Assembly (NCBI GenBank): GCA_949288185.1
Contig: CASEIZ010000050.1
Coordinates: 35,020 to 99,019, forward strand
Direction: 5' to 3'
Source of the DNA: an uncultured Eubacteriales bacterium
GTDB taxonomy: Bacteria > Bacillota > Clostridia > TANB77 > CAG-508
DNA: 64,000 nucleotides
Below are positions 13,844 to 40,879 of the stretch, piece after piece. The position numbers and the translations under genes are program-made. Below the pieces are notes generated by a model. It worked only from the letters and a program-made list of their open reading frames with translations, was not told the origin of the DNA and ran no database searches. Positions within the stretch are counted from its first letter, which is position 1. Each line of letters opens with the position of its first letter.

Positions 13844-13903
13844 GAATTTAAAATATGTGAATAAAAAAATATAAAGAAATATACTTAGGCATAATCAAAA
13901 GTC

Positions 13904-13937
13904 AAAAAATCCAACTTAAATAAAAGTTGGATTTTTT
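13904..13937. terminator. bidirectional terminator between convergent genes
   Basis: AAAAAATCCAACTT pairs with AAGTTGGATTTTTT. Confidence 0.7.
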
Positions 13938-13960
13938 GCTTGTATTGACAGTTTTAGATA

Positions 13961-18800: not shown

Positions 18801-21800
18801 ATGTTTTAGAAATCGGAAAAAGAACATGGAAATTCTTTAAACAATATATCAATCAAGAAAATCATTATCTTGTGCCAGATAACTATCAAGAAGATAGAAA
18901 ACAAAAAATTGTGACAAGGACATCTTCAACAAATATAGGATTATCTATTTTGGCGATTGTTTCAAGCTATGACTTACAATATGAAGATTTACCAGACACC
19001 ATTGATTTATTGTATAAAGTGTTAACTTCAGTCGATAGTCTGCAAAAATGGAATGGACATTTATATAATTGGTATGATACCAAAACGAAAGAACCATTAA
19101 AACCAAGATATATATCAACAGTGGATAGTGGGAATTTTGTTGGATATTTGTATGTTACAAAAGCTTTTTTGGAAGAAATACAAGAAATGTTGCAAAATCA
19201 TGATAACTGGCATTTTGAACAAAGTATAGGACATGAGAAAAATAGAGAAGAATATGAGACAGCATCAAAAGGAAACACAGTATCAAAAGAAAACACAATA
19301 TCAAATGAACAAAGAAATGAACCAATAGAAACAAAAAGAAAAATAGATATAGAAAATGAAGAAGAAATGATAAGGTTACAAAATCAAATAAAAGAAATGC
19401 TAGAAATTATTGAAAGAATTATTGAGCAAACAGACTTTACCTATTTATATAGTCAAGAACATCAAATTTTTTCCATTGGATACAATATCGAAGAAAACAA
19501 ACTAACAGATTCCTATTATGACTTGTTAGCAACAGAAGCAAGACAAGCAAGTTTGGTTGCCATTGCGAAAAAAGATATTCCATCAAAACATTGGAACCAT
19601 TTAAGTAGAACATTAACGATTTTAGGAAAATATAAAGGATTGATTTCTTGGTCAGGAACAGCATTTGAATATTTAATGCCAAATATCAATATTCCCAAAT
19701 ACAAAGGTAGCCTATTAGATGAATCTTGTAAATTTATGATGATGAGTCAAATGAAATATGCAGAAGAAATGCATTTACCATTTGGTGTATCAGAAGCAGC
19801 ATTTAATTTAAAAGATTTACAATCTAATTATCAATATAAAGCATTTGGAATTCCATGGTTGGGATTAAAAAGAGGACTAGCAGATGAAATGGTCGTGTCA
19901 TCTTATGGTAGTATATTAGCCATTACAGATATTCCAAAAGAAGTTGTTAAAAACCTAAAAGTATTAGAACAATATGGGATGTATAACCAATATGGATTTT
20001 ACGAATCAATCGATTTTACACCAGAAAGAGTTAGAAAAGGAAAACAGGCAGAGGTTGTGAAGACCTATATGGCACATCATCAAGGATTAATTTTATTATC
20101 TATCAATAATTTAATCAATCAACTTATTTTGCAAAAACGATTTACAAAAAATCCAGAAATACAAGCAGTTACCATTTTGCTTCAAGAAACCATGCCAGAA
20201 AAAGCAATTATCACAAAAGAAGATAAAGAAAAGGTAGAAAAATTAAAATATAAAGATTATGAAGATTATATTGTAAGAACATATACCAAAATAGATGAAA
20301 GACTAATTTCAGGAAACGTCATTTCTAATGAAAATTATATGATAGCAATGAATCAAAAAGGAGAAGGTGTTAGTAAATATAAAAATATTTATATCAATCA
20401 TTTTAAACGTACAGATGATTATACACAAGGAATGATATTTTATATCAAAAGTATCAAAAACAAACAAATTATGAGTTCTAGTTATTCACAAAATATAAAA
20501 AATGAAAATCAATATCAAATTCGATTTATGCCAGATAAAAATGAACAAGAAATAGTGAGTGGAAACATAAAAACAACGATAAAAACAACAGTTGCCTCAA
20601 ATGAGCCAGTAGAATTAAGAAGAATCCTATTAGAAAATTTAGGAAATGAAGAAGAAATTGTAGAATTGACAGGATATTTTGAACCTATCTTGACACCAAA
20701 AGAACAATATTATGCACACCCAGCCTTTAATAATCTATTTTTGGTGTATGGATATGATGAAAAAAATGAAGCATTACTTGTCAAAAGAAAGAAAAGAGAA
20801 ATAGGGGAAAAAGAAGTTTATCTTGCAACAACATTACATGCAAGTAGAGAAGATAAAATTGGTGATTTGGAATATGAAATCGAAGAAGAGAAATTTAATG
20901 GAAGAGGAAATTTAAAAATACCAAAAATGGTAAAAGATTCCTTACCATTTTCTAAAAAAATAGGACTTGTGACAGAGCCAGTAATCGCCATGAAAAGAAC
21001 TATCAAAATAAAGAAACAGGAAAAAGTTATCATTGATTTTATATTATCTGTAGAAGAAGAAAAAGAACAAGTGATTCAAAACCTAGAAAAATATACATCA
21101 TTTGAAAATGTAAAAAATGAATTTGAATTGTCAAAAGCAAGAGTAGAAGCAGAAACGCGATATTTAAATATGAAGGGAAAAGACATTGAAATGTATCAAA
21201 AGATGTTATCTTATATTGTATTTGATAATTCTATGAAAAGTGTAGAAAAAGAGAAAATCCATCAAACACAAACTTATAAACAAAGTGATTTATGGAAATA
21301 TGGAATATCAGGAGACTTACCAATTGTGTTGGTAAAAATGAAAAATGCAAATGATGTGCAAGGGCTAAAAGAAGTATTAAAAGCTTATGAATATTTTAGA
21401 ACCAAAAATGTAGAAACAGAAATTGTCATTATGGATGAAGAAAAATATAGTTATGAAAATTATGTAAGAGAAGAAATTGATTCTACCATATTAAACCAGC
21501 ATATGGGATATTTAAAAAATATAAAGGGTGGTATTTTTATCTTAAATGAAGAGGAAATGGACAAAAAAGATAATACTTTTCTAGAATTTATATCTGTTAT
21601 CACAATTGATTGTGCAAAAGGAAATTTAGAAAACAATTTAAAAGAAATAGAAGAAACCTATTTAGAAAATTATAAAGAAATTAGTGAAGAAGAAAATGTA
21701 AATCAATTTGTTGAAGAAAATACAGAAGATGTGGATATTTTAAAAGATACAAAAGCTTTAAAATACTATAATGAATATGGGGCTTTTTCAGAAGATGGAA

Positions 21801-24334
21801 AAGAATATTGGATACGTGCCAATAAAGAAAATCGATTGCCAACAGTATGGTCACATATGATGGCCAATGAAAAATTTGGAACCATTGTCACAGAAAATAT
21901 GGGAGGATATAGTTGGTATAAAAATAGTCGATTAAATCGATTAACTAGTTGGAATAATAATCCAAGTTTTGATATTCCGTCAGAGGTTATCTATATAAAA
22001 GATATGGATACAAAGAAAAGCTGGTCTTTAGGATTAAACCCAATGCCAGATAATCGAAATTATAATGTTATCTATGGTTTTGGCTATTGCAAATATATCC
22101 ACAGCAATTTAGGAATTGTGCAAGAATTAGAAATGTTTGTTCCAAGAGAAGATAGTTGTAAAATTGGTATTTTAAATTTAAGTAATAAAACACCAAATCG
22201 AAAACATCTAAAATTATATTATTATATCAAACCAGTAATTGGAGAGGATGAATTCAAAACATCTGGTAATATTAGCATCAAATTTGATAGAAATAGTAAT
22301 ACGTTAACAGCATGTAATGTATATGCTAGTGAAATAGACAATACCAAATTATATGTGTCATCTAGTGAAAAAATAAAAAGCTATACAGGAGATAAAAAAT
22401 TTTTCTTAGGAAAAAATGGATTATCTAATCCAGATGGTATCAAGAAACTTAGATTAAATAATAGTAATGCAATTGGTAGAGATGCTTGTATCGTATTGGA
22501 AGTTGAAGTAGAAATTGAAAGTTTTTCAAATAAAGAAATTTCTTTTGTACTAGGGGCAGAAGAAACCAATATTGATTGTAAAAATATGTCATATAAATAT
22601 AGTAAATTACAGAATTGCAGGCAAGAGTTAGAACGTGTAAAAAATTATTGGAAAGACTTATTAGGAAAACTGCAAGTATATACCCCATTAGAATCAACCA
22701 ATATTTTATTAAATGGTTGGTGTATTTATCAAACATTAGAAAGTAGACTTTTAGGAAGAAGTGGATATTATCAATCAGGAGGTGCTTTTGGTTTTAGAGA
22801 CCAATTACAAGATACCATTGCTTTAAAATATACTTCACCAGAATTTTTGAAACAGCAAATTATCAAACATAGTAAACATCAATTTGAAGAAGGAGATGTA
22901 GAACATTGGTGGCATGAAGAAACGGGTAGAGGAATTCGAACAAGATTTTCAGATGATTTATTATGGTTACCATATCTTGTACTACAATATATCCATTTTA
23001 CAGGAAATACTAGTATTTTAGAAATGGAAACACCATATTTAAAAGGAGCAATCTTAGAAGAAGGTGTAGATGAAAGATATGACCAATATCCACAAAGTGA
23101 AAAACAAGAAAGTATTTATTTACATTGTATTAGAGCAATAGAAAAGAGTTTCAATTTTGGAGAAAATGGATTACCGAAAATTGGTAGTGGAGATTGGAAT
23201 GATGGATTTAGTACAGTAGGAAATAAAGGAAGAGGAGAAAGTGTTTGGCTAGGATTTTTCTTGTATACTATTTTAGATGATTTTATTCCGATATGTGAAA
23301 TGATGGAATCCAAAAAAGAACAATGTTTAGAAGAAAACTTTAGTTTAGAGGAAAATCAGCAAGAATTCAATCTTGTAAATAAACAAATCAATTTGGAGGA
23401 AAAAGAGACAGAAGGAAAAGAGCAAATTAACAGTATACACAAAGAAGAAATAGAAAATGAAAATAAATATGACGAAAAAGATGATGACAAAGAAGAGAAA
23501 AGCCGATTGGCAAAATGGAAAGAAATTAAAATTCAACTAAAAAAAGCATTAAATACAAATGGTTGGGATGGCAGATGGTATAAAAGAGCTTTTATGGATG
23601 ATGGAAATGTATTAGGTAGCATGGAAAATGATGAGTGTAGGATTGATAGTATTGCACAAAGTTGGAGTATTATATCAAAAGCAGGGGATAATGACAAAAA
23701 ATATATCTCGATGGAGAGCTTAGAAAATCATTTAGTGGATAAGGAAAATGGAATTATAAAATTATTAGACCCACCATTTGAAAAAGGACATTTAGAGCCA
23801 GGATATATCAAAGCTTATTTACCAGGTGTTAGAGAAAATGGAGGACAATATACACATAGCAGTTGCTGGGCAATTATTGCAGAAGCTTTGTTAGGATTTG
23901 GCGATAAAGCTTTAGAATTCTATCGAATGATTAATCCAATCGAGCATGCAAGGACAAAAGATGCTAGTAGTAAATATAAGGTAGAACCATATGCCATTGC
24001 AGCAGATATTTATGGAGCTGGCAATTTAGCAGGAAGAGGTGGTTGGACTTGGTATACTGGCTCAAGTAGTTGGTATTATATTGCAGGAATAGAATATATA
24101 TTAGGACTAAAAATAAAAGAAGGATATCTAACGATAGATCCATGTATTCCAAAAGATTGGAAGGAATATCTAATGAGATATAAATGGAAAGATAGTATTT
24201 ATAATATAAAAGTTATCAATACGAATCAAAAAAATACAGGAGTAGAAAAGGTATTATTGAATGGAGAAGAGGTTGAGAATAAGATTAAATTAGATGGAAG
24301 TAATAAAGTGTATAACATAGAAGTTTATATGTAA
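15818..24334 (+). CDS. cyclic beta-1,2-glucan synthase-like protein (GT84 glycosyltransferase + GH94 phosphorylase-like C-terminus)
   Basis: 2838 aa with several TM clusters. GT core motifs are VITLDADTEL and GMIQPRIG. GH94-type motifs are GSGDWNDGFS and GGWTWYTGSSSWYY. Size and architecture match Cgs/NdvB. Confidence 0.8.
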   Translation: MKTNKILKIDGTILDKKQLENHLQKIASNHNLINKPSKETYPIPQLMENYETIKIVYNLLNEHVKLGMTTHPAGEWLLDNFYIIEETVKQIQKELTLKKYMNFLGIANGKYKGFARIYVLAAEIVAYTDNKIQKEDLEDYLASYQEKKTLSMEEIWNIGLFLQIAIIENIREICEKIYSSQIQKMKAENIVQKLIETPQENKENHIYHLKNIKKDMLNDVKYPFIEYMSYILKRYGKKGYRYLKILDEIVEMTGTTVQEVIKKEHFDIAVKKVSIGNSITSIKTIQRINFLEIFEKINGVEEILKQDPADVYSKMDNETKESYRNIIKEISKKTKISEIYIAKKILQLAKENENIGKKAHIGYYIIDKGIEKIYQELQCKVPKHLHEKTKQKVYIATNIILSIIVSLVFSSILNVYIQNVGVYILSFLILLIPSSEIVTQIIQYMLSKIVKPKPIPKIDFSKGIDEENACMVVIPSILKNKEKVKELMHKLEVYYIANESKNLYFTLLGDCSESSIKEEKFDNEVIGTGTRLAENLNKKYATENDFPIFHFIYRKREWNEKENCYLGWERKRGMLTQFNEYLLENEENVFRANTIEAYKDCIPKIQYVITLDADTELILNSAFELVGAMAHILNKPVIDEERNIVIEGHGMIQPRIGINLDISYKTIFTQIFAGAGGIDSYTNAISDLYQDNFGEGIFTGKGIYDVKVFSRVLKNAIPENTVLSHDLLEGCYLRCGLATDIMLMDGYPTKYNSFMNRLSRWIRGDWQIISWLKDKIKSKVGNIQNPLNSLSKYKIFDNLRRSLIEIMVIISLILFVILGKVYHFETYPLIIISIIAVVMPYILEIFNTMLVKKEGEHKQKKFSPRISGYKGICLRIWITIGVLPYKAYVSCIAIIKTLYRKWVSHKKLLEWMTSEEAEKQAKNDVISYIKQMWFNIALGILTMGISFTNKGFGNFVIQMILGILWTVTPFIMWYISKEKKEIKAVETLDKAEIEYVLEIGKRTWKFFKQYINQENHYLVPDNYQEDRKQKIVTRTSSTNIGLSILAIVSSYDLQYEDLPDTIDLLYKVLTSVDSLQKWNGHLYNWYDTKTKEPLKPRYISTVDSGNFVGYLYVTKAFLEEIQEMLQNHDNWHFEQSIGHEKNREEYETASKGNTVSKENTISNEQRNEPIETKRKIDIENEEEMIRLQNQIKEMLEIIERIIEQTDFTYLYSQEHQIFSIGYNIEENKLTDSYYDLLATEARQASLVAIAKKDIPSKHWNHLSRTLTILGKYKGLISWSGTAFEYLMPNINIPKYKGSLLDESCKFMMMSQMKYAEEMHLPFGVSEAAFNLKDLQSNYQYKAFGIPWLGLKRGLADEMVVSSYGSILAITDIPKEVVKNLKVLEQYGMYNQYGFYESIDFTPERVRKGKQAEVVKTYMAHHQGLILLSINNLINQLILQKRFTKNPEIQAVTILLQETMPEKAIITKEDKEKVEKLKYKDYEDYIVRTYTKIDERLISGNVISNENYMIAMNQKGEGVSKYKNIYINHFKRTDDYTQGMIFYIKSIKNKQIMSSSYSQNIKNENQYQIRFMPDKNEQEIVSGNIKTTIKTTVASNEPVELRRILLENLGNEEEIVELTGYFEPILTPKEQYYAHPAFNNLFLVYGYDEKNEALLVKRKKREIGEKEVYLATTLHASREDKIGDLEYEIEEEKFNGRGNLKIPKMVKDSLPFSKKIGLVTEPVIAMKRTIKIKKQEKVIIDFILSVEEEKEQVIQNLEKYTSFENVKNEFELSKARVEAETRYLNMKGKDIEMYQKMLSYIVFDNSMKSVEKEKIHQTQTYKQSDLWKYGISGDLPIVLVKMKNANDVQGLKEVLKAYEYFRTKNVETEIVIMDEEKYSYENYVREEIDSTILNQHMGYLKNIKGGIFILNEEEMDKKDNTFLEFISVITIDCAKGNLENNLKEIEETYLENYKEISEEENVNQFVEENTEDVDILKDTKALKYYNEYGAFSEDGKEYWIRANKENRLPTVWSHMMANEKFGTIVTENMGGYSWYKNSRLNRLTSWNNNPSFDIPSEVIYIKDMDTKKSWSLGLNPMPDNRNYNVIYGFGYCKYIHSNLGIVQELEMFVPREDSCKIGILNLSNKTPNRKHLKLYYYIKPVIGEDEFKTSGNISIKFDRNSNTLTACNVYASEIDNTKLYVSSSEKIKSYTGDKKFFLGKNGLSNPDGIKKLRLNNSNAIGRDACIVLEVEVEIESFSNKEISFVLGAEETNIDCKNMSYKYSKLQNCRQELERVKNYWKDLLGKLQVYTPLESTNILLNGWCIYQTLESRLLGRSGYYQSGGAFGFRDQLQDTIALKYTSPEFLKQQIIKHSKHQFEEGDVEHWWHEETGRGIRTRFSDDLLWLPYLVLQYIHFTGNTSILEMETPYLKGAILEEGVDERYDQYPQSEKQESIYLHCIRAIEKSFNFGENGLPKIGSGDWNDGFSTVGNKGRGESVWLGFFLYTILDDFIPICEMMESKKEQCLEENFSLEENQQEFNLVNKQINLEEKETEGKEQINSIHKEEIENENKYDEKDDDKEEKSRLAKWKEIKIQLKKALNTNGWDGRWYKRAFMDDGNVLGSMENDECRIDSIAQSWSIISKAGDNDKKYISMESLENHLVDKENGIIKLLDPPFEKGHLEPGYIKAYLPGVRENGGQYTHSSCWAIIAEALLGFGDKALEFYRMINPIEHARTKDASSKYKVEPYAIAADIYGAGNLAGRGGWTWYTGSSSWYYIAGIEYILGLKIKEGYLTIDPCIPKDWKEYLMRYKWKDSIYNIKVINTNQKNTGVEKVLLNGEEVENKIKLDGSNKVYNIEVYM

Positions 24335-24445: not shown

Positions 24446-25126
24446 ATGGCAAAAATATTAGTGTTTAACAATGATACAGATAGAATGGAAACCTATTACA
24501 GGAATGAAGCTGACCCAATGCCATATAATACAAATGGAACATTAAGAGTAAGGGAATTTAGAGGTTCAAGCAAAAGTAATATACTATGGACAACAAAAAG
24601 AACTATGCAAAGCTGGAATAGTCAGAGATATATTTTTGGAGGACCAATACCGGTAGGATTTGCTTTTAAAAGACCATATGAAGGTGGACATGGAAATCAA
24701 AGTCAACATTATGCAGGAGTAGCCTTTGATGTTGGGCAAACTTTGTCAGCAGAGAGAAGAAGAGTTCTTTGGAATAGTGCCAATAATTCAGGGGTATGGA
24801 CATATGTAGAGCCAATTTCATTAACACCAACATGGGTACATTTTGATAAAAGATTCGGATCTCCTGCCTGCAGTACAGGTGGATTTCCACAACTAAAGAG
24901 GGGAAGTTTAAGCAATTATGTACTGATTGCACAAGATGATTTAAATACTTTGGGATATCGTACAAACGGATTAGATGGTATATTTGGACCAGCAACACAA
25001 AATGCGGTAAGAGAATATCAACGAACAAGAGGATTGGCTGTTGATGGAATTGTTGGTTGTAATACATGGCGTTCACTTCAAGAAGAAGTGGTAGGAGCAG
25101 GAGCAACAAGTACAACGATTAATTAA
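24446..25126 (+). CDS. cell-wall hydrolase: M15 (VanY-like) zinc peptidase domain + C-terminal PG_binding_1 domain
   Basis: SQHYAGVAFDV fits SxHxxGxAxD, and TWVHFD provides the second zinc ligand region. The C-terminus GLDGIFGPATQNAVREYQRTRGLAVDGIVG is a PG-binding repeat. No signal peptide was seen. Confidence 0.7.
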   Translation: MAKILVFNNDTDRMETYYRNEADPMPYNTNGTLRVREFRGSSKSNILWTTKRTMQSWNSQRYIFGGPIPVGFAFKRPYEGGHGNQSQHYAGVAFDVGQTLSAERRRVLWNSANNSGVWTYVEPISLTPTWVHFDKRFGSPACSTGGFPQLKRGSLSNYVLIAQDDLNTLGYRTNGLDGIFGPATQNAVREYQRTRGLAVDGIVGCNTWRSLQEEVVGAGATSTTIN

Positions 25127-25131
25127 TCATA

Positions 25132-25164
25132 AAAAGACTATTTCTAACAAAGAAATAGTCTTTT
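25132..25164 (+). terminator. terminator after the M15 hydrolase
   Basis: AAAAGACTATTTCT pairs with AGAAATAGTCTTTT. Confidence 0.7.
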
Positions 25165-25261
25165 ATCATATATGGAGAATTTTGTGATAATAGTCGTAAA
25201 TCAATTGACAAAAGAACAAAAGTTTGATAGTATGTAGCAAATAAATAGAGGTGAATTAAAA

Positions 25262-26074
25262 ATGAGCAAAAAAGATTTATATATAAGAAGTAGTAGTGCA
25301 GAATTTTTAATTTTTGAACAACAGAAAAAAGAGCAAGGAATTGAAGTGCGATTTGAAGATGGAGATTTATGGTTAACTCAAAAGGCGTTAGGAGAATTGT
25401 ATAATACATCAAAACAAGATATAAGTTATCATTTGAGTAATATCTTTAAGGAAATAGAATTGGAACAAAATTCAGTTGTCAAAAATTATTTGACAACTGC
25501 TTCAGATGGAAAAAAATATAAAACAAATTACTATAATTTAGATGCAGTAATTTCTGTTGGATATAGAGTAAATACAGATAGAGCAATTCAATTTAGAAGA
25601 TGGGCAACAAACGTATTAAAAGAGTTTTCAAAAAAAGGATATATTATTGATAAAAATCATGAGATAAAAGAAAATGGAGCTAGAGGATTAGAAGAATTAT
25701 TTAACGAACTAGAAACTGATGAAAGAACAAATGGTGCAACTGCTCCAAATTTTGCACATAGATTAGATAGAATTACAGATAGAAATTTACATTTTGCAAG
25801 ACGAAACCATTCTTTAACAGATTATTATATAAGTATGCAAAATATAATTCCATCTAGAGACAAAGCGATGTTATTATTAATGGGAATAGAGGCATATTAT
25901 AATTGTGTAGGACAACAAAATAAAGAATTTGCTAGTAAACTAGAAGAGAAAATCAGTCAAATTCTTGACGATTATGAAATAAAAAAGATTTCTTCAAGAA
26001 ATGATGTTGCACACCAATCTATAACAAGTGAAAGTACGGAACTTAATATTAGTGATGATACCGATTCGAGATAA
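25262..26074 (+). CDS. RhuM-family protein (N-terminal RhuM core, divergent C-terminus)
   Basis: The motif series FEDGDLWLTQKALGELY, YYNLDAVISVGYRVNTDRAIQFRRWATNVLKEF is typical of RhuM. Confidence 0.7.
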   Translation: MSKKDLYIRSSSAEFLIFEQQKKEQGIEVRFEDGDLWLTQKALGELYNTSKQDISYHLSNIFKEIELEQNSVVKNYLTTASDGKKYKTNYYNLDAVISVGYRVNTDRAIQFRRWATNVLKEFSKKGYIIDKNHEIKENGARGLEELFNELETDERTNGATAPNFAHRLDRITDRNLHFARRNHSLTDYYISMQNIIPSRDKAMLLLMGIEAYYNCVGQQNKEFASKLEEKISQILDDYEIKKISSRNDVAHQSITSESTELNISDDTDSR

Positions 26075-26117
26075 CCTTTTATTACATAGTACAACAATTA
26101 ATTAATAATAAAAATAT

Positions 26118-26158
26118 GAAAAGAAAGTGTTCACCATTAAAGTGAACACTTTCTTTTC
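26118..26158. terminator. bidirectional terminator between convergent RhuM and XRE genes
   Basis: GAAAAGAAAGTGTTCAC pairs with GTGAACACTTTCTTTTC, a 17-bp perfect stem. Confidence 0.8.
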
Positions 26159-26161
26159 ATG

Positions 26162-26542
26162 TTATGCATCCTTATAATTACCACTTTTTTCTTCTTGCAT
26201 TTTCACAAGTTGAGTTGTTAATAAATAAACAACTTCTTTATTATAATTATTCAATTTTAAATAAGCTTCTAAAAACTTATCATCGACTAAATCATTGAAA
26301 GAGGAAGCATCATTATCTATTAAATCATCAAAAAGAAAATTAGAACTAATATTAAGTGCTTTACAAAGATTAATAATAGTTGTAGCACTTCCAAAAGCAA
26401 TACCTCTTTCTAACTGGCTAATATATCTTGTTGACAAAGAAAGTTTTTCTGCTAATTTTTCTTGTGTATAGTTTGTTCTAGATCTAGCTAGTTTGATTTT
26501 TTTACCAATATTTTTTCTTAAATATTTTTCATTATTATCCAT
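26162..26542 (-). CDS. XRE-family helix-turn-helix transcriptional regulator
   Basis: HTH region YTQEKLAEKLSLSTRYISQLERG; 126 aa. Confidence 0.8.
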   Translation of the reverse strand: MDNNEKYLRKNIGKKIKLARSRTNYTQEKLAEKLSLSTRYISQLERGIAFGSATTIINLCKALNISSNFLFDDLIDNDASSFNDLVDDKFLEAYLKLNNYNKEVVYLLTTQLVKMQEEKSGNYKDA

Positions 26543-28519: not shown

Positions 28520-29017
28520 ATGGCAACGAGATATCAATATGAGACAAGTCCAAGAAAATTAGAACCAGATATTAAAAAAGAAAAGAAAAAACAAAATATT
28601 AAAGTTGTAAAAGACTTGCCAAAACAAGATGTCAAGCTATCAAAAGAACAAAAGAAAAAACATAGAAAAGCAACTTTGTTAGTTATGGCTATATTTGCTG
28701 TACTATTTACCATAAGTTATCGAAATACTCAAATCAATGAAAAGTTTAGTGAAATACAGAGTTTAAGAACAGAGCTATCTTCGTTACAAAAAGAAAATGA
28801 ACAATTACAAGTAACGATAGAAAATAGTTTAAATTTAAGTAATATAGAAAAACAAGCAAAAGAAAAATTAGGTATGCAAAAATTAACGAATAAACAAACT
28901 GTATATGTTAGTTTACCAAAGAAAGATTATATAGAATCTGCAACAGAAAAAGTAGAGATTAGTGATACGAATGAAAATTGGTTTCAAAAATTGGTAGATA
29001 AGATTTTTAATAGATAA
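28520..29017 (+). CDS. ftsL: cell division protein FtsL-like (bitopic, coiled coil)
   Basis: Position after rsmH, a basic N-terminus, one TM helix (ATLLVMAIFAVLFTISY) and a coiled-coil ectodomain. Confidence 0.7.
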   Translation: MATRYQYETSPRKLEPDIKKEKKKQNIKVVKDLPKQDVKLSKEQKKKHRKATLLVMAIFAVLFTISYRNTQINEKFSEIQSLRTELSSLQKENEQLQVTIENSLNLSNIEKQAKEKLGMQKLTNKQTVYVSLPKKDYIESATEKVEISDTNENWFQKLVDKIFNR

Positions 29018-29226
29018 TTGTGAAAATCAGTTGTCTATTTTTTTACTGTATAGGAAAAATCAACCTTCATCTTGGCCTGATGTAGATTTTTTCGCATACA
29101 ACAAGATTAGACTTCTTATAGAATAGGACATTATATACAATTTTTAAGTTCGCCAGGTTCAAAATAAAAATGGAAAAATGTTGCAATTATCCGAAAGAAA
29201 TGTTAACATAAATAAGGGGGATAAAA

Positions 29227-30897
29227 ATGCCAAAAAGAAAATTAAAATTAGAAGAAGCAAAAGAAGAATTAGGTTTTGATAAAATGTTTTACAATGGATA
29301 TAATAAGTTTAATATTGTACATTCGGGTAAATATCGTTCTGGTATTACACTTGAAATACCACAGGAATGGTATTTAAATAAGGATAAAAAACCAATAAAT
29401 CCTATTAATTACAGAGAAGTTAGAGAATTAACAGATGGAATGAATATAGATTTTGATGGGGAAGCAAGTGTACTCTTAGGTAAGTATCGTTTGAGTAAAA
29501 ACGGAAGGCCTGTATTTGAGATAACAGAACCCAAAGAAGCTAAAGATACAATGATTTTGGTTTCGTGGGGTGGAGCATTTAATAAAACACGTGGACAAAC
29601 GAGTTCTTATGCAAAAGAAACTGGTGCGAAATTTTTTACGAAAAGCTCTAGTAATGGTGGAGGCATGGGAGCTGATTATTGGATACTTCCAGTTGGATTT
29701 GTAAAAGATAGAGAAGAAAGAGATGTGACTGATATTTTAGAAAGGCTTCAAAAAGAAGATGACGAAAAAAATTCTGAAATAGATCAATACCTTGAAATAC
29801 AAGAAAAAGAGAGACAAGAATCAATAAAAAATAAAGATAGAATTGTAGAAATGGTAAAACCAATAGTTGAAGATATAAAAAAATATAATCTAGATTTTGA
29901 ATTTTTTGTAGGGGATGAAGAGTGCCAATATCATATAACAGGATATACTTATAAAAAAAGAAGATATAAGGATTCTTTAGTAGAAGAATTAACACAAATT
30001 TTACAAGAAGAGAAAGACAAGAAAGAAAAAAAGGATGAATTTATACCACAATATAGAGAACTAGAAGAACTTATAAAAGATACAGAACTATCTATAATTT
30101 ATATAGATAACGGAATACAGATAAAAGCCCCAAATAGTATATATAATTATAGAACATATCCATATAGTCAAGAAGGATTTAATACATGTGTAAAATATAT
30201 AAAGGATTATAAAGAAAAAATACGACAAGAACAAGAAAAAGCAAGACTTGAAATGGAAAAACTAAAACAAGAAAAAGAGTTAAAAGAAAAAAAGGCGGAT
30301 GCCAAAGAGAAGGGATATCCTACAATTTTTAAGTTCAAAAACAGAATTGGAGGAAAAACGGGCTTATCACATGCTTTTGTAATAGAGAAAGATGGAATGA
30401 TAAGAGAGCCTGATCATAATGAGTTAAGAAATTCAAATCATAGATATCATTATAATTGGAAAAATAATGCTGATGGAATACAAGAATATCAACAAATACT
30501 TCCAGGAGAAATTATAGTTTCATATACTAAAGAAGTAACAGCAACACCATATGTATTAAATGTAGAATGGGCTGATGGAAAAGCAAGTAAAGAACAATTA
30601 GAAAATATATGTGAAGCACTGGAAAGAACAGAATCATTTGCAGTAGATAGTGATGGAAATTATATAACTTCAATAAAAGAATGGGCACAAAAAGCTATAG
30701 AATTAAAATCAAGGGAATGTAGACAAAAATTGAATATAGAAGAAATAGAAGAAAATGATGAATTTTTAGATAATATTGTAGAAAGCGCAAGAAAAAAATT
30801 AGAGTTAAAAGGAAAATCTGCTGAAGCTACAGAATTAGCACAGAAATATGAAGAACAAACGCAACAAACAGAAGGTCCTAATATGGATGGTGATTAA
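29227..30897 (+). CDS. hypothetical protein (556 aa): two globular ends joined by an E/K coiled coil
   Basis: RBS AAGGGGG. No recognisable motifs. Confidence 0.7.
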   Translation: MPKRKLKLEEAKEELGFDKMFYNGYNKFNIVHSGKYRSGITLEIPQEWYLNKDKKPINPINYREVRELTDGMNIDFDGEASVLLGKYRLSKNGRPVFEITEPKEAKDTMILVSWGGAFNKTRGQTSSYAKETGAKFFTKSSSNGGGMGADYWILPVGFVKDREERDVTDILERLQKEDDEKNSEIDQYLEIQEKERQESIKNKDRIVEMVKPIVEDIKKYNLDFEFFVGDEECQYHITGYTYKKRRYKDSLVEELTQILQEEKDKKEKKDEFIPQYRELEELIKDTELSIIYIDNGIQIKAPNSIYNYRTYPYSQEGFNTCVKYIKDYKEKIRQEQEKARLEMEKLKQEKELKEKKADAKEKGYPTIFKFKNRIGGKTGLSHAFVIEKDGMIREPDHNELRNSNHRYHYNWKNNADGIQEYQQILPGEIIVSYTKEVTATPYVLNVEWADGKASKEQLENICEALERTESFAVDSDGNYITSIKEWAQKAIELKSRECRQKLNIEEIEENDEFLDNIVESARKKLELKGKSAEATELAQKYEEQTQQTEGPNMDGD

Positions 30898-30899
30898 AT

Positions 30900-31196
30900 A
30901 TGGAGATTAGCATGGTAGAGATAGAAAATAATCAAAAAGAGAAACATGATAATTTTTTAAAAATGCTTAAAGTTGAAGAAGATCAAGAACTGAAACAATT
31001 GATTAAAATTCAAGAAGAATTAGAAAGAATAGGAATTAATAAAAAAAATGTCCAAGAATTGACGAAAAGTTTATCTGAAGAGCAAAAACAAAGACTTGAA
31101 AAGTTATATAAAGAGCAAATAAAAAAACTTGAAGAAGATATAACAAACAAAAAAAATAAAATAATTGAAATAAGAAAAAAAATAGTAAAAAATTAA
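30900..31196 (+). CDS. hypothetical small coiled-coil protein (98 aa)
   Basis: The start lies 2 nt after the upstream stop, with RBS GGATGGTGA. The sequence is heptad-like and E/K/L-rich. Confidence 0.6.
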   Translation: MEISMVEIENNQKEKHDNFLKMLKVEEDQELKQLIKIQEELERIGINKKNVQELTKSLSEEQKQRLEKLYKEQIKKLEEDITNKKNKIIEIRKKIVKN

Positions 31197-31277
31197 GTGG
31201 AAAGAGAATGAAATTATATAAAAAATCTTAAAATAAAGTTACTAAATAAGCAAATCATAAAAAGGAGAGGATTAAAT

Positions 31278-32711
31278 ATGGAAAGTAAAAAATTAAAAGG
31301 ATACCAAGGATTGTTTTTAGATGAAAAAACACAGGAAAAATTAGTTGAATTGCAAAAAAATGGACTTAGTGATATAACAAAAGATATGCATATCACTTTT
31401 AAATTTGGAGAAACAGAACAATATCCAGAAGAATTAATTGGAAAAGAATTTAATGTTAAAATTATTGGATATGCTTCTGATGGAAAAAATAGTGGATTTC
31501 AAGTGGAACTACCAGAAGAATTAAAACCATATTATAAAAATCAAAATGGACCACATATAACAGTTTCATTAGGTGAAGTGGATGGAATAAAAGGTAAAGC
31601 AGTGGATACAGGCACTTTAAATTTTGAACCAATTGAAGAACCATTTGAAATATCAAGTAAGCTAGGATATTTTGTATATGGTAAAGGAAAGGTTATGGAC
31701 AATAGTATTTTTGATAAGATGAAAGAAGAACAGTCAAAAGCAAAAGCTGAAGAATATATAAAAATCGTAAAAGAAAAATTAGAAGAAACCAAAACAGTAG
31801 TAACACATTTTGGAGATGACTTAGATAATAAATCAGCAATATATGCAATAGAAAAATGGGCTAAAGAACAAGGAATATTAAAGGAAGATGAAAGCTTGCA
31901 AGTAGATAGAGTGCCAGCAGGAAAGATAAAAGAAGGAATGTTAAATGTGGATACAGGAGGACACAAAGGAAGTAGACAAGAAGATGGAACAATCGTAATA
32001 GATGGAGATCCAGCAAATGGAGTAAAATCAGCATCAGAAGAATTAAATAACTTAGGATTTTATGTACCAGAACAAATCGTAGAATTAGCAGATACAGTAC
32101 CAAATAAAGTAAGTGCATTAGATAGTAGAAGTGGACTAGCTCTAATTAGATACTTATCAGGAGAGCAAGCATTTAAATTGGCAGAAGCAAGATTGTTAGA
32201 TAAATCTCTAACAGATGAACAAATAAGAGAATTTGGATTAGAAGAAGCACATGAAAAACAACAAGGCATTATTGATAATGCAGTAGAAAAAATCGAAAAA
32301 TACACAAAAGAGTTACCAAACGGAAAAAAAATTGTATTAGCACCAGAACAAATCATTGCAGGATCTATGATAGCATATGAAAAAGGAATACCATATTATG
32401 CATCAGCATCTAATCATTTAGATAAAGACAAAAATGTAGATGGCGTAACATTTGCCATCACAAGCAAGCCAGGAACAAAACTACCAGAAGAAATATTAGA
32501 ATATGGAAAAGAGTTAGTAGAACAATATAGAATAGATGAAAATACATCAGGTGTATTTGTCAATCCAAATGGACAAATGGTGGTAGCAGGAGGATTTAAG
32601 AACCCAACATTTAAAATACCAAATGAAACCATAGAAGGTATGTTAAATAAAATTGAAGCGAAATTTATGGGAAAAGATTTAGAAAAAGAAGAAAATCAAG
32701 AAGAGTATTAA
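31278..32711 (+). CDS. fusion protein: 2H-phosphoesterase-like N-domain + degenerate DHH/DHHA1-like domain
   Basis: RBS AAAAGGAGAGG. There are two HxT motifs (MHITFKFG, PHITVSLG). These are followed by THFGDDLDNKSAIYAI (DHH motif I-like), LNVDTGGH (motif II-like), IVIDGDP in place of DHH, and VAGGFKNP in place of GGGH. Confidence 0.55.
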   Translation: MESKKLKGYQGLFLDEKTQEKLVELQKNGLSDITKDMHITFKFGETEQYPEELIGKEFNVKIIGYASDGKNSGFQVELPEELKPYYKNQNGPHITVSLGEVDGIKGKAVDTGTLNFEPIEEPFEISSKLGYFVYGKGKVMDNSIFDKMKEEQSKAKAEEYIKIVKEKLEETKTVVTHFGDDLDNKSAIYAIEKWAKEQGILKEDESLQVDRVPAGKIKEGMLNVDTGGHKGSRQEDGTIVIDGDPANGVKSASEELNNLGFYVPEQIVELADTVPNKVSALDSRSGLALIRYLSGEQAFKLAEARLLDKSLTDEQIREFGLEEAHEKQQGIIDNAVEKIEKYTKELPNGKKIVLAPEQIIAGSMIAYEKGIPYYASASNHLDKDKNVDGVTFAITSKPGTKLPEEILEYGKELVEQYRIDENTSGVFVNPNGQMVVAGGFKNPTFKIPNETIEGMLNKIEAKFMGKDLEKEENQEEY

Positions 32712-32804
32712 AAGAAATAAGAGAAAATTTTGTCTATTCTGTTAATATAGAATAGTAGGAAAAATTCTATAGATTGAAGAATTGAGAAGGGAAAGAGATT
32801 ACTT

Positions 32805-33599
32805 ATGAGAACAATTCAAACAAATGATATTTTAAAAAATAAATATAGTATAGTAAATAACGAAGTGGTAGAAACAGAAAACGGAGAATATTATAATCAG
32901 CAGATAGCAAAACAAATCATGATAAGTGAACAACAAAACAAGATAGATTCTGCAAAACAATTAAAAGAAATGGATAAAAAACAAAAACAAAATGCTGTAA
33001 AAAAAATTTGTATAGATAAATATAGTGAAGCAAAATCAGAAAATACAGATATTAATATTTGGGAAAAAGAACCCCAAAAAGAGTATGAAATATATAGATT
33101 AAAGCTTGATACAGAAGAATTAATGTTAATCAATACAAAATATCTTCCAGATAGCAAAGAAAAAGAAGTGTATTATGACAAAAATATTGCTATGAAAATT
33201 TATGATAATATGTTTCAGTTAGATCAAAATATAGAAAATAGTTTTCCGGAATTAATGGAAATGTGTCAAGGAGAAATTGCTGAAATACAAGAAACAATTC
33301 ATAAATTAAAAAAAGAAGATGAAGAGAAGTACAAGGAAGCAGTAAATACTTATCGTACTATATATGATTCAGGAATTTTAGAAACGATGAAAAATAATTT
33401 TAAGCAAATAAAAACAGAAAAGGATAATTTGAAACAGCAATTAGAAAAATCAAATCACATTATTCAAGACCTATCTAAAAAATTGCAAGTGGCATTGAAT
33501 AAAGTTGAAGAATTGCAAAATCAAAAATTTGGATTTTGGAGTCGTATTTTTAGTAGATTAAAAACCAAAAGGTTGAATGAGAAAAATAATAATTATTAG
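32805..33599 (+). CDS. hypothetical coiled-coil protein with C-terminal amphipathic helix
   Basis: Long E/K/Q coiled-coil stretches with the terminal segment KFGFWSRIFSRLKTKRL. Confidence 0.6.
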   Translation: MRTIQTNDILKNKYSIVNNEVVETENGEYYNQQIAKQIMISEQQNKIDSAKQLKEMDKKQKQNAVKKICIDKYSEAKSENTDINIWEKEPQKEYEIYRLKLDTEELMLINTKYLPDSKEKEVYYDKNIAMKIYDNMFQLDQNIENSFPELMEMCQGEIAEIQETIHKLKKEDEEKYKEAVNTYRTIYDSGILETMKNNFKQIKTEKDNLKQQLEKSNHIIQDLSKKLQVALNKVEELQNQKFGFWSRIFSRLKTKRLNEKNNNY

Positions 33600-33687
33600 A
33601 ATTTGTGGTAAAGATAGTATTCTCATTCAGTAATAGAAAATATAATTCAGATAATTTAATAAAACATATGAACAAAGGCATAAAAAC

Positions 33688-33722
33688 AAACACCTCTAAT
33701 ACATATTATTAGAGGTGTTTTT
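33688..33722 (+). terminator. terminator-like hairpin whose 3' arm contains the SD of the downstream PBP gene
   Basis: CACCTCTAAT (33691-33700) pairs with ATTAGAGGTG (33708-33717). T5 (33718-33722) directly abuts the ATG at 33723. Confidence 0.65.
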
Positions 33723-35714
33723 ATGAATGAAATCAAATTATCAGGCAAGAAAAAAATGAAAAATATTTTATTTATATCTTTTTTAATCATCATATGTTTA
33801 ATTGTAAGACTAGGATATATACAATTAATACAAGGAAAGGAATTAGCAAAATTAGCCTATGAACAACAAACATTAGACAGAAAGATTAATCCCAAAAGAG
33901 GAACCATTTATGATGCTACAGGAAAAAATATATTAGCCGTTAGTAGTACAGTAGAAACAGTTACAGTTAATCCGAGCAATATTTCAGCTGAAAACAAAGA
34001 AAAAGTTGCCAAAGCTTTGTCAGATATATTTGAACTGGATTATGAAACCGTATTAAAAAAAGTAAAGAAAAGAAGTTCTATTGAAACCATTGTGAAAAAA
34101 GTCGAAAAGGAAAAAACAGATGAATTAAGAAAATGGATAGAAGAAAATAATATGACAAGTGGAATTAATATTGATGAAGATACAAAAAGATATTATCCAT
34201 ATAACAATTTTGCATCACAAATTATAGGATTTTGTGGAAGTGATAATCAAGGATTAGATGGAATAGAAGCAAAATATGAAGAAGAACTAAAAGGAGAGCA
34301 AGGAGCAATTCAAAAACATACAGATGCCAAAGGAGGAGAGATTGGAGAAGAAGGAGAAAATTACGTGCCTGCTATAGATGGAAATGATTTAGTATTAACA
34401 ATTGATTTAACCATTCAATCCATAGTGGAAAAATATTTAGAAGAAGCTTGTATTGACAATGTTTGTACAGATGGTGGAAGTGTTATTGTCATGAATCCAC
34501 AAAATGGAGATATTTTAGCTATGGCCAATTATCCAAGCTATAACTTAAATGAGCCATATGAACCATATACAGAAGAATTAAAAACAACATGGGATTCTCT
34601 AGAACAAGCAGAAAAAACGACGTATTTACAAGCGGTTTGGAGAAATAAAGCCATTGCAGACACCTATGAACCAGGTTCTGTATTTAAGTTAATTACAGCT
34701 TCTGCTGCATTGGAAGAAGGCATCACAGACACAGATAATGAAGGAGAATTTTCTTGTACAGGTGGAATTGAAGTAGCAGGTGTTAGAATAAAATGTTGGA
34801 GATATTATAGACCACATGGTTCAGAGAGTTTAAGGCAAGGATTAATGAATTCATGTAATCCAGTTTTTATTGGATTAGGACAAAAAATAGGAGTAACAAA
34901 ATATTATGAATATTTGGAAAAATTTAAGTTATTACAAACAACAGGAATTGATTTACCAGGAGAAGCTGGAAGTATATTTTTAGCTAAAGAAAAAGCAGGA
35001 CCAGTCGAATTAGCAACTATCAGTTTTGGTCAAAGATTTGAAATTACGCCAATTCAATTAGCAACAGCAGTATCTAGCATTGCTAATGGAGGAACCAGTA
35101 TAAAACCAAGAGTGGTAAAACAAATCATTGATAGTGAAACAAAAGAAGTAACAGACATTCCAGTAGAAAAGGGAGATATGGTTATTTCAAAAGAAACCTC
35201 TGAAAAAGTATTAAGTATGATGGAAAGTGTTGTATCAGAAGGTACTGGCAAAAATGCAAAAGTGGCAGGATATAGAATTGGAGGAAAAACAGGAACCTCA
35301 GAAGATGGTGTTAATACAAATAAATATGTAACATCTTTTTGTGGAGTCGCACCAATTGATAATCCACAAGTAGTGGTATTGGTTACTTTATATAATCCAA
35401 CAGGTGAAGGGGGACACCAAGGAGGAGGGGTGGCAGCACCAGTGGGCGGACAGATATTTAGTGAAATATTACCATATTTGGAAGTAAATAAAGAAATATT
35501 AGAAGAAGATGAGGAAGAAATCATTAATCAAATACAGGTACCAGATATTATGGGGAAAACATTAGAAGAAGCAAAGCAGATTTTAAAAGAGAATAATTTA
35601 GAAATGTATTTAGAAAATGAAGAAGTTGATATGGAAAATACTTATGTAAAAAATCAAATTCCAAGTAGTGGGATAACCGTTAATGAACAAAGTAAAGTGG
35701 TGATAGAATATTAA
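33723..35714 (+). CDS. class B penicillin-binding protein (FtsI/PBP2B/SpoVD family), one PASTA domain
   Basis: N-terminal TM helix, the SVFK, SCN and KTGTS motifs, and C-terminal PASTA (IQVPDIMGKTLEEAKQIL...). Confidence 0.9.
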   Translation: MNEIKLSGKKKMKNILFISFLIIICLIVRLGYIQLIQGKELAKLAYEQQTLDRKINPKRGTIYDATGKNILAVSSTVETVTVNPSNISAENKEKVAKALSDIFELDYETVLKKVKKRSSIETIVKKVEKEKTDELRKWIEENNMTSGINIDEDTKRYYPYNNFASQIIGFCGSDNQGLDGIEAKYEEELKGEQGAIQKHTDAKGGEIGEEGENYVPAIDGNDLVLTIDLTIQSIVEKYLEEACIDNVCTDGGSVIVMNPQNGDILAMANYPSYNLNEPYEPYTEELKTTWDSLEQAEKTTYLQAVWRNKAIADTYEPGSVFKLITASAALEEGITDTDNEGEFSCTGGIEVAGVRIKCWRYYRPHGSESLRQGLMNSCNPVFIGLGQKIGVTKYYEYLEKFKLLQTTGIDLPGEAGSIFLAKEKAGPVELATISFGQRFEITPIQLATAVSSIANGGTSIKPRVVKQIIDSETKEVTDIPVEKGDMVISKETSEKVLSMMESVVSEGTGKNAKVAGYRIGGKTGTSEDGVNTNKYVTSFCGVAPIDNPQVVVLVTLYNPTGEGGHQGGGVAAPVGGQIFSEILPYLEVNKEILEEDEEEIINQIQVPDIMGKTLEEAKQILKENNLEMYLENEEVDMENTYVKNQIPSSGITVNEQSKVVIEY

Positions 35715-39535: not shown

Positions 39536-39738
39536 ATGTCCAATTGGGGACGTTTCTGTTTGGGGCATTTTTATGTAAAGTTATGTTCCTATATGAACTT
39601 TAAATTTTAGAAACAGTATTCCAAATTCAAAATTACAATTATACAAATTTTTGAAGATATAAAACTTACACAAAATGTTTCCAATAAGTATAAATTTACA
39701 TAAAAATGTCCCAAACAGAAACGTCCCCAATTGGACAT
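39536..39738. repeat. 203-bp palindromic element with 44-nt near-perfect arms between ftsW and murG
   Basis: ATGTCCAATTGGGGACGTTTCTGTTTGGGGCATTTTTATGTAAA pairs with TTTACATAAAAATGTCCCAAACAGAAACGTCCCCAATTGGACAT, with one indel. The interior is AT-rich. Confidence 0.85.
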
Positions 39739-39756
39739 CAGAAAGGAAAGAAGAAA

Positions 39757-40879
39757 ATGAAGGTAGTTATTGCAGCAGCAGGAACAGCAGGTCACATCAA
39801 TCCAGGATTAGCGATAGCAAAAAAAATACAAGAAGAACAAAAAGACTCTAAAATTATTTTTATAGGAACAACAAGAGGATTGGAAAATGATTTGGTTCCA
39901 AGAGCTGGATATGAATTAAAAACAATTGATGCATATGGATTAAGTAAAAAAATATCTATTGAAAATATGAAAAAAATGATAAAAACATTAAAAGGATTCG
40001 GAGAAGCAAAAAAAATATTAAAAGAAATCAATCCAGATGTTGTTATAGGTACTGGAGGATATATTTGTGGTGCAACCATTTCAGCAGCACATCGATTGAA
40101 AATTCCAACAGTATTACATGAAAGTAATGCTTTCCCAGGAAAAGCAGTAAAAATGCTAGCCAAAAAAACAGATACCATTTTAGTATCTTTTGAAGATGCG
40201 ATTGGAAGAATAAAACATGCAAAAAAAATTGTATATACAGGAACACCTGTAAAAATAAAAAAACAAAATTATTCAGAAGAACAAAAAGACGAGATTATCA
40301 AAAAAATCCGGATTAAAAAAAGATATGCCAATTGCGTTAGTATTTGGAGGAAGTCAAGGAGCAAGAAGAATTAATCAAGCGATAATGGAAATGATAAAAT
40401 CAGAGTCAAATAAAAATTATCAAATGATTTGGGCAACAGGACCAAAACAGTATGATATTGTAAAAGAAGAATTAGAAAATGAGCATAAAAATATTAACCA
40501 TATAAAAAATATGAAAATTTTTCCATATATATATAATATGGAGGAAATTATGAATATTGTAGATGTCATTGTAGCAAGAAGTGGAGCAATGACCATTACA
40601 GAAATTGCAAAGGTAGGAAAACCATCGATATTGGTGCCATTACCAAATGTCAGTCATGATCATCAATTATATAATGCAAAAGTATTACAAAATATAGATG
40701 CAGCAGATATTATATTAGATAATGAATTAGATGGAAAAAAATTAAATGCAAATATAGAAAAAATTGTATTAGACAAAAATAGGTGCCAAAAAATGGGCGA
40801 AAAAGCATTAACAGTTGCGACTGATGATGTAGAAAATAAAATATATGAGCAAGTTGTAGAAACTATAAGAAAACAATAG
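39757..40879 (+). CDS. murG: UDP-N-acetylglucosamine--N-acetylmuramyl-(pentapeptide) pyrophosphoryl-undecaprenol GlcNAc transferase, interrupted by a +1 frameshift in an A7 run (40300-40306)
   Basis: N-terminal part is MKVVIAAAGTAGHINPGLAIA. Removing one A restores IKKSGLKKDMPIALVFGGSQGARRINQ, which continues into the second ORF (40325..40879). Confidence 0.85.

Follow-up and report, generated by a model that had tools for sequence, protein, structure and literature searches.

A likely horizontally acquired four-gene cassette with candidate nucleotide-signal-degrading enzymes in the ftsL-pbp spacer of an uncultured gut Clostridia lineage

Background

What are four genes without a recognizable family doing inside the division and cell wall (dcw) cluster? 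The question is raised by a 64,000-nt stretch of contig CASEIZ010000050.1, a metagenome scaffold (the window; all coordinates are positions in it unless a locus is named), in which an initial annotation had recorded four same-strand open reading frames (ORFs) of 556, 98, 477, and 264 aa between ftsL and the gene for a class B penicillin-binding protein (PBP; gene pbp). Their coordinates were confirmed, and we refer to them in order as g1 to g4:

29227..30897, + strand: g1, 556 aa
30900..31196, + strand: g2, 98 aa (94 aa if the start is the ATG at 30912)
31278..32711, + strand: g3, 477 aa
32805..33599, + strand: g4, 264 aa

We consider it likely that this module is an accessory cassette of ~4.63 kb, acquired horizontally at an insertion hotspot by one species-level lineage of uncultured gut Clostridia, with the degradation of nucleotide signals as its favored function. 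A dedicated role of the module in cell division is not supported. A cassette in an insertion hotspot is a known kind of thing; the protein families that make up this one are unannotated.

Insertion into the dcw cluster

The four ORFs lie on the + strand between a DivIC/FtsL-family gene, which ends at 29017 and encodes a 165-aa protein whose profile matches DivIC and FtsL, and a gene that starts at 33723 and encodes a SpoVD-like class B PBP of 663 aa (best match SpoVD, 599 bits); murE, mraY, and ftsW follow pbp. Related loci were collected by a PBP-based scan of one genome per GTDB species, which returned 80 loci (the L-numbers used below denote loci of relatives), all from metagenome-assembled genomes (MAGs) of uncultured gut Clostridia, of which ~70 hold both ftsL and pbp. 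The gap between these two genes is 40-250 nt in ~60 of the ~70 species, including the closest ones (L027, L028, L030, and L033; PBP 94-97% identical), and only the window lineage and L031 have g3/g4 in this position. With ftsL and pbp adjacent in so many related species, neither the presence nor the position of g1 to g4 in the dcw cluster is conserved. Comparison by blastn with four empty-site species, whose flanks are 90-93% identical to those of the window, places the edges of the insertion: the left block of similarity stops at 29042-29044 and the right block restarts at 33676-33677. The insertion and the hairpins near its ends are as follows:

29044..33675, + strand: 4.63-kb insertion, replacing a spacer of 12-22 nt in sister species
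29009..29046, + strand: terminator-like hairpin of ftsL plus U7, ancestral left flank, outside the insertion
29048..29100, + strand: weak hairpin at the left end of the insertion, -12.4 kcal/mol
33679..33725, + strand: pbp leader hairpin containing the Shine-Dalgarno sequence and AUG of pbp, ancestral right flank, outside the insertion

No flanking direct or inverted repeats of note and no target duplication were found around the insertion. A loose resemblance at the two junctions, 'AGGAAAAAT.AAC' versus 'AGGCATAAAAACAAAC', was considered as a trace of att sites and rejected, as it is within chance for AT-rich DNA.

The initial annotation had the module bracketed by a hairpin at 29053-29093 and a terminator at 33688-33722, and neither marks a boundary. 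The former corresponds to the weak hairpin at 29048-29100 (z = -2.2; 10 of 200 shuffles fold equally well) and is outdone by the ancestral ftsL terminator, a hairpin at 29009-29039 followed by U7 (-10.8 kcal/mol, z = -4.0) that is kept in the empty-site species L027, L028, L030, L033, and L036. The latter is the ancestral pbp leader hairpin (-19.4 kcal/mol, z = -6.8), which is present in all empty sites and is found whether or not there is an insert. This hairpin covaries: pairing holds for 91% of cells in an alignment of 33 species, compensatory (two-sided) changes occur at 7 of the 14 pairs, and the observed value is reached in none of 500 shuffles, with slid controls at 45-61%. The strong hairpins were rejected as boundaries of the module because both are ancestral. 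A U run follows the pbp leader hairpin, which is conserved at the same position across ~60 species (L026-L105) and may exert translational or attenuation control over the class B PBP.

Base composition alone would not have revealed the insertion. The GC content of g1 to g4 is 0.22-0.30 and their GC content at third codon positions (GC3) is 0.13-0.18, compared to a GC3 of 0.15-0.19 in the dcw genes, so the initial annotation was correct that the module is indistinguishable from its neighbors in this respect. However, its conclusion that the module is not an obvious recent import does not stand, as the insertion is missing from the closest sister species. Composition is uninformative on import here because the gene-carrying relatives that were examined are uncultured gut Clostridia MAGs, the same type of source as the relatives of the window. 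For annotators, co-stranded genes with host-like composition in a highly conserved operon can still be recent foreign cargo, and synteny in sister species can settle their origin where composition cannot.

Within the window species the module appears to be fixed across the sampled assemblies. Among 10 listed places with an identical FtsL protein, from 9 metagenome assemblies, none lacks the module over the length that its contig covers. In the window the four ORFs are all intact, and the ratios of nonsynonymous to synonymous substitution (dN/dS) against L005/L002 are 0.35 for g1, 0.52 for g2, 0.14 for the whole of g3, and 0.08 for g4; we read this range of 0.08-0.52 as purifying selection, and therefore g1 to g4 as functional. 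Clear Shine-Dalgarno sequences precede g1, g3, and g4. The initial annotation had claimed strong ones for all four genes and a gap of 2 nt between g1 and g2. The start of g2 is ambiguous, however; the 2-nt gap applies with the ATG at 30900, while the assembly's own gene call uses the ATG at 30912 and gives 94 aa. A terminator scan found no strong terminator between the cassette and pbp, and the number of sites returned by promoter and terminator scans was not above that in shuffled sequence.

Some of these places have a slightly shorter g4 plus an extra reverse-strand gene of 111 aa. In one strain variant of the window species (L016, 12203-12538, - strand), this gene separates g4 from the pbp leader, having entered at the right junction of the main insertion; it has an apparently higher GC content and no family match.

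The ftsL-pbp spacer in related species

The same spacer holds unrelated cargo in seven other species, with the main genes co-oriented with dcw:

L026 and L029, ftsL-pbp spacer: ART-like+HD fusion, 543-549 aa
L049, ftsL-pbp spacer: sortase gene and large genes without a family match (pilin-like by eye)
L067, ftsL-pbp spacer: surface protein of 2906 aa
L074, ftsL-pbp spacer: Amidoligase_2 fusion between two small genes
L075, ftsL-pbp spacer: protein of 524 aa without a family match
L083, ftsL-pbp spacer: AAA_14/DUF4143 ATPase

In this clade the ftsL-pbp spacer is a recurrent insertion slot. Certain intervals flanked by core genes are known hotspots in which horizontal gene transfer (HGT) is concentrated (Oliveira, Touchon and Rocha 2017, PMC5635113), and the slot shares with these hotspots a single core-gene interval, accessory genes that differ from lineage to lineage and turn over quickly, and the frequent lack of an identifiable integrase. 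It differs from them in its setting within the highly conserved dcw operon, where a terminator stands on one side and a leader hairpin that sequesters the Shine-Dalgarno sequence on the other. It also differs in the orientation of the main cargo, which follows the operon in all eight occupied versions examined; only the strain-variant 111-aa gene is reversed. A spacer of ~15-20 nt within dcw is thus a reusable slot for cargo whose main genes follow the direction of the operon.

Two further observations concern variable DNA in and around the cluster. Upstream of mraZ, the region 24446-26542 differs between strains of the same species (compare L016, 1-5021); in the window it contains genes for a PG_binding_1 protein and for a RhuM-family protein (match to the PADLOC defense candidate PDC-S05, 182 bits) and, on the reverse strand, an HTH gene, and it looks like a second variable slot flanking dcw. 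In the sister species L032 (~9885-9960) and L034 (~9810-9965), long near-perfect palindromes replace the ftsL terminator in the ftsL-pbp spacer and may be elements resembling miniature inverted-repeat transposable elements (MITEs) or alternative terminators.

Two gene pairs and their homologues

The cassette consists of two separately mobile gene pairs, g1-g2 and g3-g4, that have been joined. Elsewhere, all four genes co-occur only as these two pairs, and the seam between them is visible by comparison with L005:

31197..31206, + strand: joint between the g1-g2 and g3-g4 blocks; L005 homology stops at 31196 and restarts at 31207

Locus L005 has both pairs, with nucleotide identities to the window of 81% (g1-g2) and 88% (g3-g4), and carries ~7.8 kb of other genes between them; therefore, the window cassette is a condensed arrangement of that layout. 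The module is neither always found between ftsL and pbp nor made up of four genes that travel as one, and the earlier proposal of a division-coupled system is contradicted by the absence of the insertion from the closest relatives, by homologues at unrelated loci, and by co-occurrence of the genes only as two pairs.

Each pair has its own settings. In L002-L004, g3-g4 lie between dnaB/LysR and rpoB, after an HD gene, an AAA-Csx3 gene, and three genes without a family match, and in L002-L005 the g4 homologue that follows g3 is 90% identical in amino acid sequence. Versions of g3 with only the DHH-like part occur in L006 next to Peptidase_S11 genes and in L008 with thyX on one side and uvrD on the other; in L008, a g2 homologue follows the DHH-like gene. 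The pair g1-g2 is found together in L005, L011-L013, L014, L015, and L126, always with the small charged g2 product encoded after g1. The genes near these pairs in relatives include AAA-Csx3, Csx3, HD, PHP, and LysR genes.

Several of these copies are associated with mobile elements. In L011-L013, g1-g2 lie in a segment of ~13.8 kb (335-14117) with two large serine recombinase genes and a Peptidase_S11 fragment on each side, and in L014 the pair stands beside parB-parA-gidB, near Mob_Pre and a recombinase. Recombinase genes or repeats, which would characterize an integrative mobile element, are present around these homologues and absent from the window. The other proposal of the initial annotation, mobile cargo, is thereby upheld: the pairs lie within or alongside elements that carry serine recombinase genes, and the spacer is a recurrent slot for unrelated cargo. 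Large serine recombinases carry integrative elements that interrupt genes (skin-type intervening elements). The L011-L013 segment is similar to these in having two large serine recombinase genes between Peptidase_S11 fragments, and we take it to resemble the intervening elements that interrupt sporulation genes; unlike such elements, the copy in the window lacks a recombinase and does not interrupt a gene. The Peptidase_S11 gene that is split in L011-L013 is a D-Ala-D-Ala carboxypeptidase gene.

In a related lineage (L116-L119, 5092-9869), a LysR gene and a stand-alone 2H-like gene lie next to an HD_4 gene and a gene for a 2030-aa DEAD/ResIII protein. This group is ~1.4 kb upstream of mraZ, with a reverse-strand aminotransferase gene between, and the cluster does not continue to pbp after the ftsL-like gene.

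Predicted proteins of the cassette

Searches of the g1 to g4 proteins against Pfam, NCBIfam, PHROGs, and PADLOC gave no usable match. No divisome or envelope family was matched in Pfam or NCBIfam, as the initial annotation had concluded by eye, nothing scored below E 8e-4 in PHROGs, and no PADLOC defense model was matched by g1 to g4, although the neighbors of their homologues elsewhere match Csx3 and AAA-Csx3. The g3 protein had been described as a nucleotide-phosphoesterase-like fusion. This description holds, on the strength of a predicted DHH/DHHA1 fold found by Foldseek and two invariant HxT motifs, and the two domains are placed as follows:

31278..31742, + strand: g3 N-terminal domain, 2H-phosphoesterase-like (aa 1-155), HxT at H38-I-T40 and H93-I-T95
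31755..32672, + strand: g3 C-terminal domain, predicted DHH/DHHA1 fold with divergent motifs (aa ~160-465), pLDDT >90, Foldseek

The N-terminal domain belongs to a family of 114 members, mostly stand-alone proteins of ~156 aa, and both HxT motifs are invariant across 34 aligned members. These 34 members gave no match to a Pfam 2H family, and a PDB profile search returned no 2H structure. Both motifs fall on predicted strands, but the predicted local distance difference test (pLDDT) score of the AlphaFold2 (AF2) model is only 30-74 there. The domain resembles 2H phosphoesterases, including the phage anti-CBASS nuclease Acb1, in its length of ~150 aa and in its two invariant HxT motifs on predicted strands; unlike them, it has no match by hidden Markov model (HMM), no confident structural match, and no relative in viral scans, and its fusion partners are DHH or Csx3 domains. 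A poly-A run at ~31483-31490 of g3 has an extra A in some samples (compare L023, 2801-4235), and the resulting +1 frameshift removes most of the 2H-like domain, with products of 410 aa (P0008-P0010) and a similar one of 419 aa (P0011). Real variation, phase variation, and homopolymer error are all possible explanations.

The C-terminal domain is predicted to adopt the DHH/DHHA1 fold. The top Foldseek matches of the g3 model were NrnA (5izo; E 1e-3, probability 0.99), the DHH protein PF0399, RecJ, and Cdc45. In its 176 homologues, similarity to g3 is limited to the C-terminal two thirds, and the N-termini vary. Residues H177, D181, D183, D225, H229, D242, and G243 are invariant, and this set fits DHH motifs I and II: by eye, a motif I-like H177-F-G-D-D181-L-D183 follows strand 1 and a motif II-like N-V-D225-T-G-G-H229 follows a later strand, both invariant in 57 sequences. 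The domain thus shares with DHH/DHHA1 enzymes (NrnA, GdpP, PggH, the CRISPR-associated NrN, and the MAD nuclease) a two-lobed predicted fold and the H-x-x-D-D-x-D and D-T-G-G-H motifs. It differs from them in lacking similarity at the HMM level, in its D-G-D triad and G-G-F-K-N motif, and in belonging to a domain family that is fused to 2H-like or Csx3-like domains.

These fusions connect g3 to Csx3. A 382-aa protein of L015 has an N-terminus corresponding to the 2H-like domain of g3 (71% identical) and a Csx3 C-terminus (PADLOC 61 bits, Pfam 40.7 bits). In L005, a 597-aa protein combines a second DHH-like domain with a region homologous to the L011 Csx3 protein (pairwise BLASTP E 2e-16), although PADLOC and Csx3 HMMs did not confirm a Csx3 domain in it. 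The L011 Csx3 gene encodes 244 aa, and AAA-Csx3 proteins were matched in PADLOC at 165 bits in L002 (495 aa) and L011 (501 aa). Given the three kinds of fusion (2H-like with DHH, 2H-like with Csx3, and Csx3-like with DHH), the 2H-like, DHH-like, and Csx3 domains are interchangeable fusion partners. The g1-g2 genes co-occur with Csx3, 2H, or DHH enzyme genes in the window, in L005, L011, and L015, and in the distant L127, and because of this co-occurrence we infer that they are functionally linked to this set of enzymes.

In the AF2 model of the g1 protein (pLDDT 87), aa 1-165 form a beta-rich domain at the N-terminus and aa 362-470 a conserved beta domain toward the C-terminus, while aa 168-361 between them make up long helices that carry small beta inserts. 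The earlier description of g1, g2, and g4 as coiled-coil-rich is thus only partly right, since the g1 model has two folded beta-rich domains in addition to its long helices. A Foldseek search of this model against PDB and BFVD gave nothing better than E 0.06, and a PDB profile search with the g1 alignment gave nothing. Full-length homologues number 61, at 43-74% identity, with a few shorter or more distant ones, and an exhaustive profile search extended the family to 446 clusters (50% identity) at E<=1e-3 and 292 at E<=1e-10; a scan of JGI metagenomes with the g1 profile found three loci only, too few for co-occurrence statistics. The family is modular, with the N-terminal domain and the middle-plus-C-terminal region also occurring separately or fused to other sequences, and ten of these fusion partners had no match in Pfam. 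ORFs with 36% identity to the N-terminal domain occur on IMG/VR contigs of ~230 kb, where the g1 homologues and their neighbors matched only PHROGs families of unknown function. The g4 product, the partner of g3, is a charged protein with a basic-hydrophobic C-terminal tail and has no family or viral match. Neither g2 nor g4 has relatives detected outside these islands.

Discussion

We favor the view that either recombination via the conserved flanks in dcw or the decay of a larger element most likely brought the cassette to this position; the mechanism of insertion is only inferred, because the window has neither a recombinase nor repeats. Cargo kept co-oriented with dcw would still allow transcription of pbp-murE. 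The cassette probably degrades nucleotide signals. In the proposed scheme, g3 would be a two-headed phosphodiesterase whose 2H-like head opens a cyclic or 2',3'-cyclic phosphodiester and whose DHH/DHHA1-like head then degrades the linear product, with substrates that may be nucleotide or oligonucleotide signals of the kind degraded by Csx3 ring nucleases. The g1-g2 products would be unannotated partners of g3-type enzymes, acting perhaps as sensor, effector, or adaptor. We favor a role in genetic conflict, in which nucleotide second messengers would be quenched on behalf of a mobile element.

The suggested link of these proteins to the turnover of signaling nucleotides is coherent with the activities of better characterized enzymes. 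Csx3/Crn3 is a ring nuclease for cyclic tetra-adenylate (cA4), which is also degraded by a DHH-DHHA1 nuclease (PMC8284326), and the DHH enzyme NrN degrades SAM-AMP (PMC10600005). DHH/DHHA1 enzymes are also known to act on short oligonucleotides. Acb1 is a compact nuclease of the 2H fold that cleaves cyclic oligonucleotide signals and thereby acts against the cyclic oligonucleotide-based antiphage signaling system (CBASS) (PMC10419184). For jumbo phages, DHH and 2H enzymes have been put forward as counter-nucleotide devices, and 2H enzymes are specialists for 2',3'-cyclic ends (PMC7824862). Csx3/Crn3 and AAA-Csx3, known as accessories of type III CRISPR, stand in the islands of relatives with g1-g2 and g3-g4, where the 2H-like domain known from g3 also occurs in fusion with Csx3. 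In contrast to the type III CRISPR context of Csx3, a Csx3 domain is missing from the window cassette, and none of the copies was seen to have cas genes nearby.

Several results weigh against this interpretation. No cas genes, CBASS genes, or other genes for signal production (cyclase, CD-NTase) were seen near any copy. Searches by tblastn with g3 against GenBank phages and PLSDB plasmids, and with g1 against phages, gave no match, and pattern-based scans of IMG/VR found no relatives of the 2H-like domain, the DHH-like domain, or g4; these results weaken a reading as phage counter-defense. A phage origin is disfavored by the viral contig scans, in which the enzyme domains did not turn up, and a complete defense system by the lack of any signal synthase seen near the copies. 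The 2H assignment of the g3 N-terminal domain is drawn from motifs only. In the C-terminal domain, the DHH of motif III reads D242-G243-D244 and the GGGH motif reads G438-G439-F-K-N442, no Pfam DHH/DHHA1 match was obtained at E<=0.1, and a PDB profile search gave no DHH protein at E<=10; with non-canonical motifs and no HMM match, catalysis by g3 is therefore putative. No functional annotation is available for g1, g2, or g4. No recombinase, transposase, att site, or target duplication was found within or beside 29044-33675, and fixation of the module in the window species is also compatible with a function that benefits the host.

In the likeliest of the alternatives, the cassette would be a host defense system with g1-g2 as sensor and effector and with 2H, DHH, and Csx3 enzymes as off-switches, like the ring nucleases of type III CRISPR loci, in a hotspot of the defense type. 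The repeated company of g1-g2 with Csx3, 2H, DHH, and LysR genes, even at 28% identity, would fit, as would the status of Csx3 and AAA-Csx3 as CRISPR-associated accessory families in PADLOC, the defense-like cargo in the slot or nearby (AAA_14/DUF4143, ART-like+HD, and the RhuM protein matching candidate PDC-S05), the fixed state of the module, and the lack of relatives of the enzyme domains in viral contigs. However, g1 to g4 match no PADLOC model, no cyclase or CD-NTase adjoins any copy, the N-terminal domain of g1 is present in viral-collection contigs of ~230 kb, and the pairs lie in or near elements with recombinase genes, so that we regard a host defense system as rather unlikely. A role in RNA end-healing or nucleotide housekeeping, with the 2H domain resolving 2',3'-cyclic phosphate ends, the DHH domain acting as a nanoRNase, and no genetic conflict involved, is a poorer prospect still. 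It would suit the known specialization of 2H enzymes (PMC7824862), the structural proximity of the g3 C-terminal domain to nanoRNase A, and the stand-alone 2H-like proteins that are common on long, apparently chromosomal contigs. However, the partners of the genes are Csx3 domains, and neither an RNA ligase nor a kinase was seen among them; the genes are mobile and patchily distributed, with none in sister species, and the DHH catalytic motifs are non-canonical.

An inert, decaying remnant of a larger island, without current function, is very improbable. The cassette is indeed a condensed version of the L005 arrangement and lacks a recombinase, and in some samples the poly-A frameshift cuts the 2H domain of g3 short; against this, the four ORFs are intact in the window with dN/dS of 0.08-0.52, and each listed contig with an identical FtsL protein carries the module as far as it extends. 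We give the least credence of all to a lineage-specific division or envelope system that is functionally part of dcw, which synteny has already largely refuted: the genes are absent in ~60 related species including the closest, have homologues at loci unrelated to dcw, share their slot with unrelated cargo in other species, match no divisome or envelope family, and are flanked by hairpins that are ancestral. What speaks for it is the common strand inside dcw with no strong terminator before pbp, fixation in the window species, and a basic-hydrophobic tail of g4 that could, judged by eye, bind a membrane. A prophage or phage structural module was rejected, as no phage family was matched and only the N-terminal domain of g1 has relatives in IMG/VR.

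Returning to nucleotide-signal degradation on behalf of a mobile element or its host, we suggest tentatively, as a possibility and not as the expected outcome, that g1-g2 and the interchangeable 2H-like, DHH-like, and Csx3 enzymes (with LysR and p159) form an undescribed nucleotide-signal conflict system without nearby cas or CBASS genes. Such a system, for defense or counter-defense, would be built on an unannotated g1 superfamily common to islands of gut Clostridia and to large viral contigs. For the field of phage defense, the domain swaps seen outside CRISPR loci (2H-like with DHH, 2H-like with Csx3, Csx3-like with DHH, and AAA-Csx3) provide unstudied candidates for signal-degrading enzymes. 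The same swaps tie these enzymes to the unannotated partner family of g1, with its relatives in large viral contigs.

Additional observations

Three other features of the window were recorded. The murG gene appears split into overlapping ORFs at 39706-40374 (Glyco_transf_28) and 40325-40879 (Glyco_tran_28_C), owing either to a frameshift or to a fault in the assembly. On the - strand, 53996-56560 encodes a second class B PBP, a paralogue of 854 aa that shares 49% identity with the dcw PBP. Finally, the gene at 15818-24334 encodes a 2838-aa protein with GH94 and glycoamylase domains, by eye like a cyclic beta-1,2-glucan synthase or phosphorylase, and such a GH94/glycoamylase gene also neighbors the DHH-like gene in L008.

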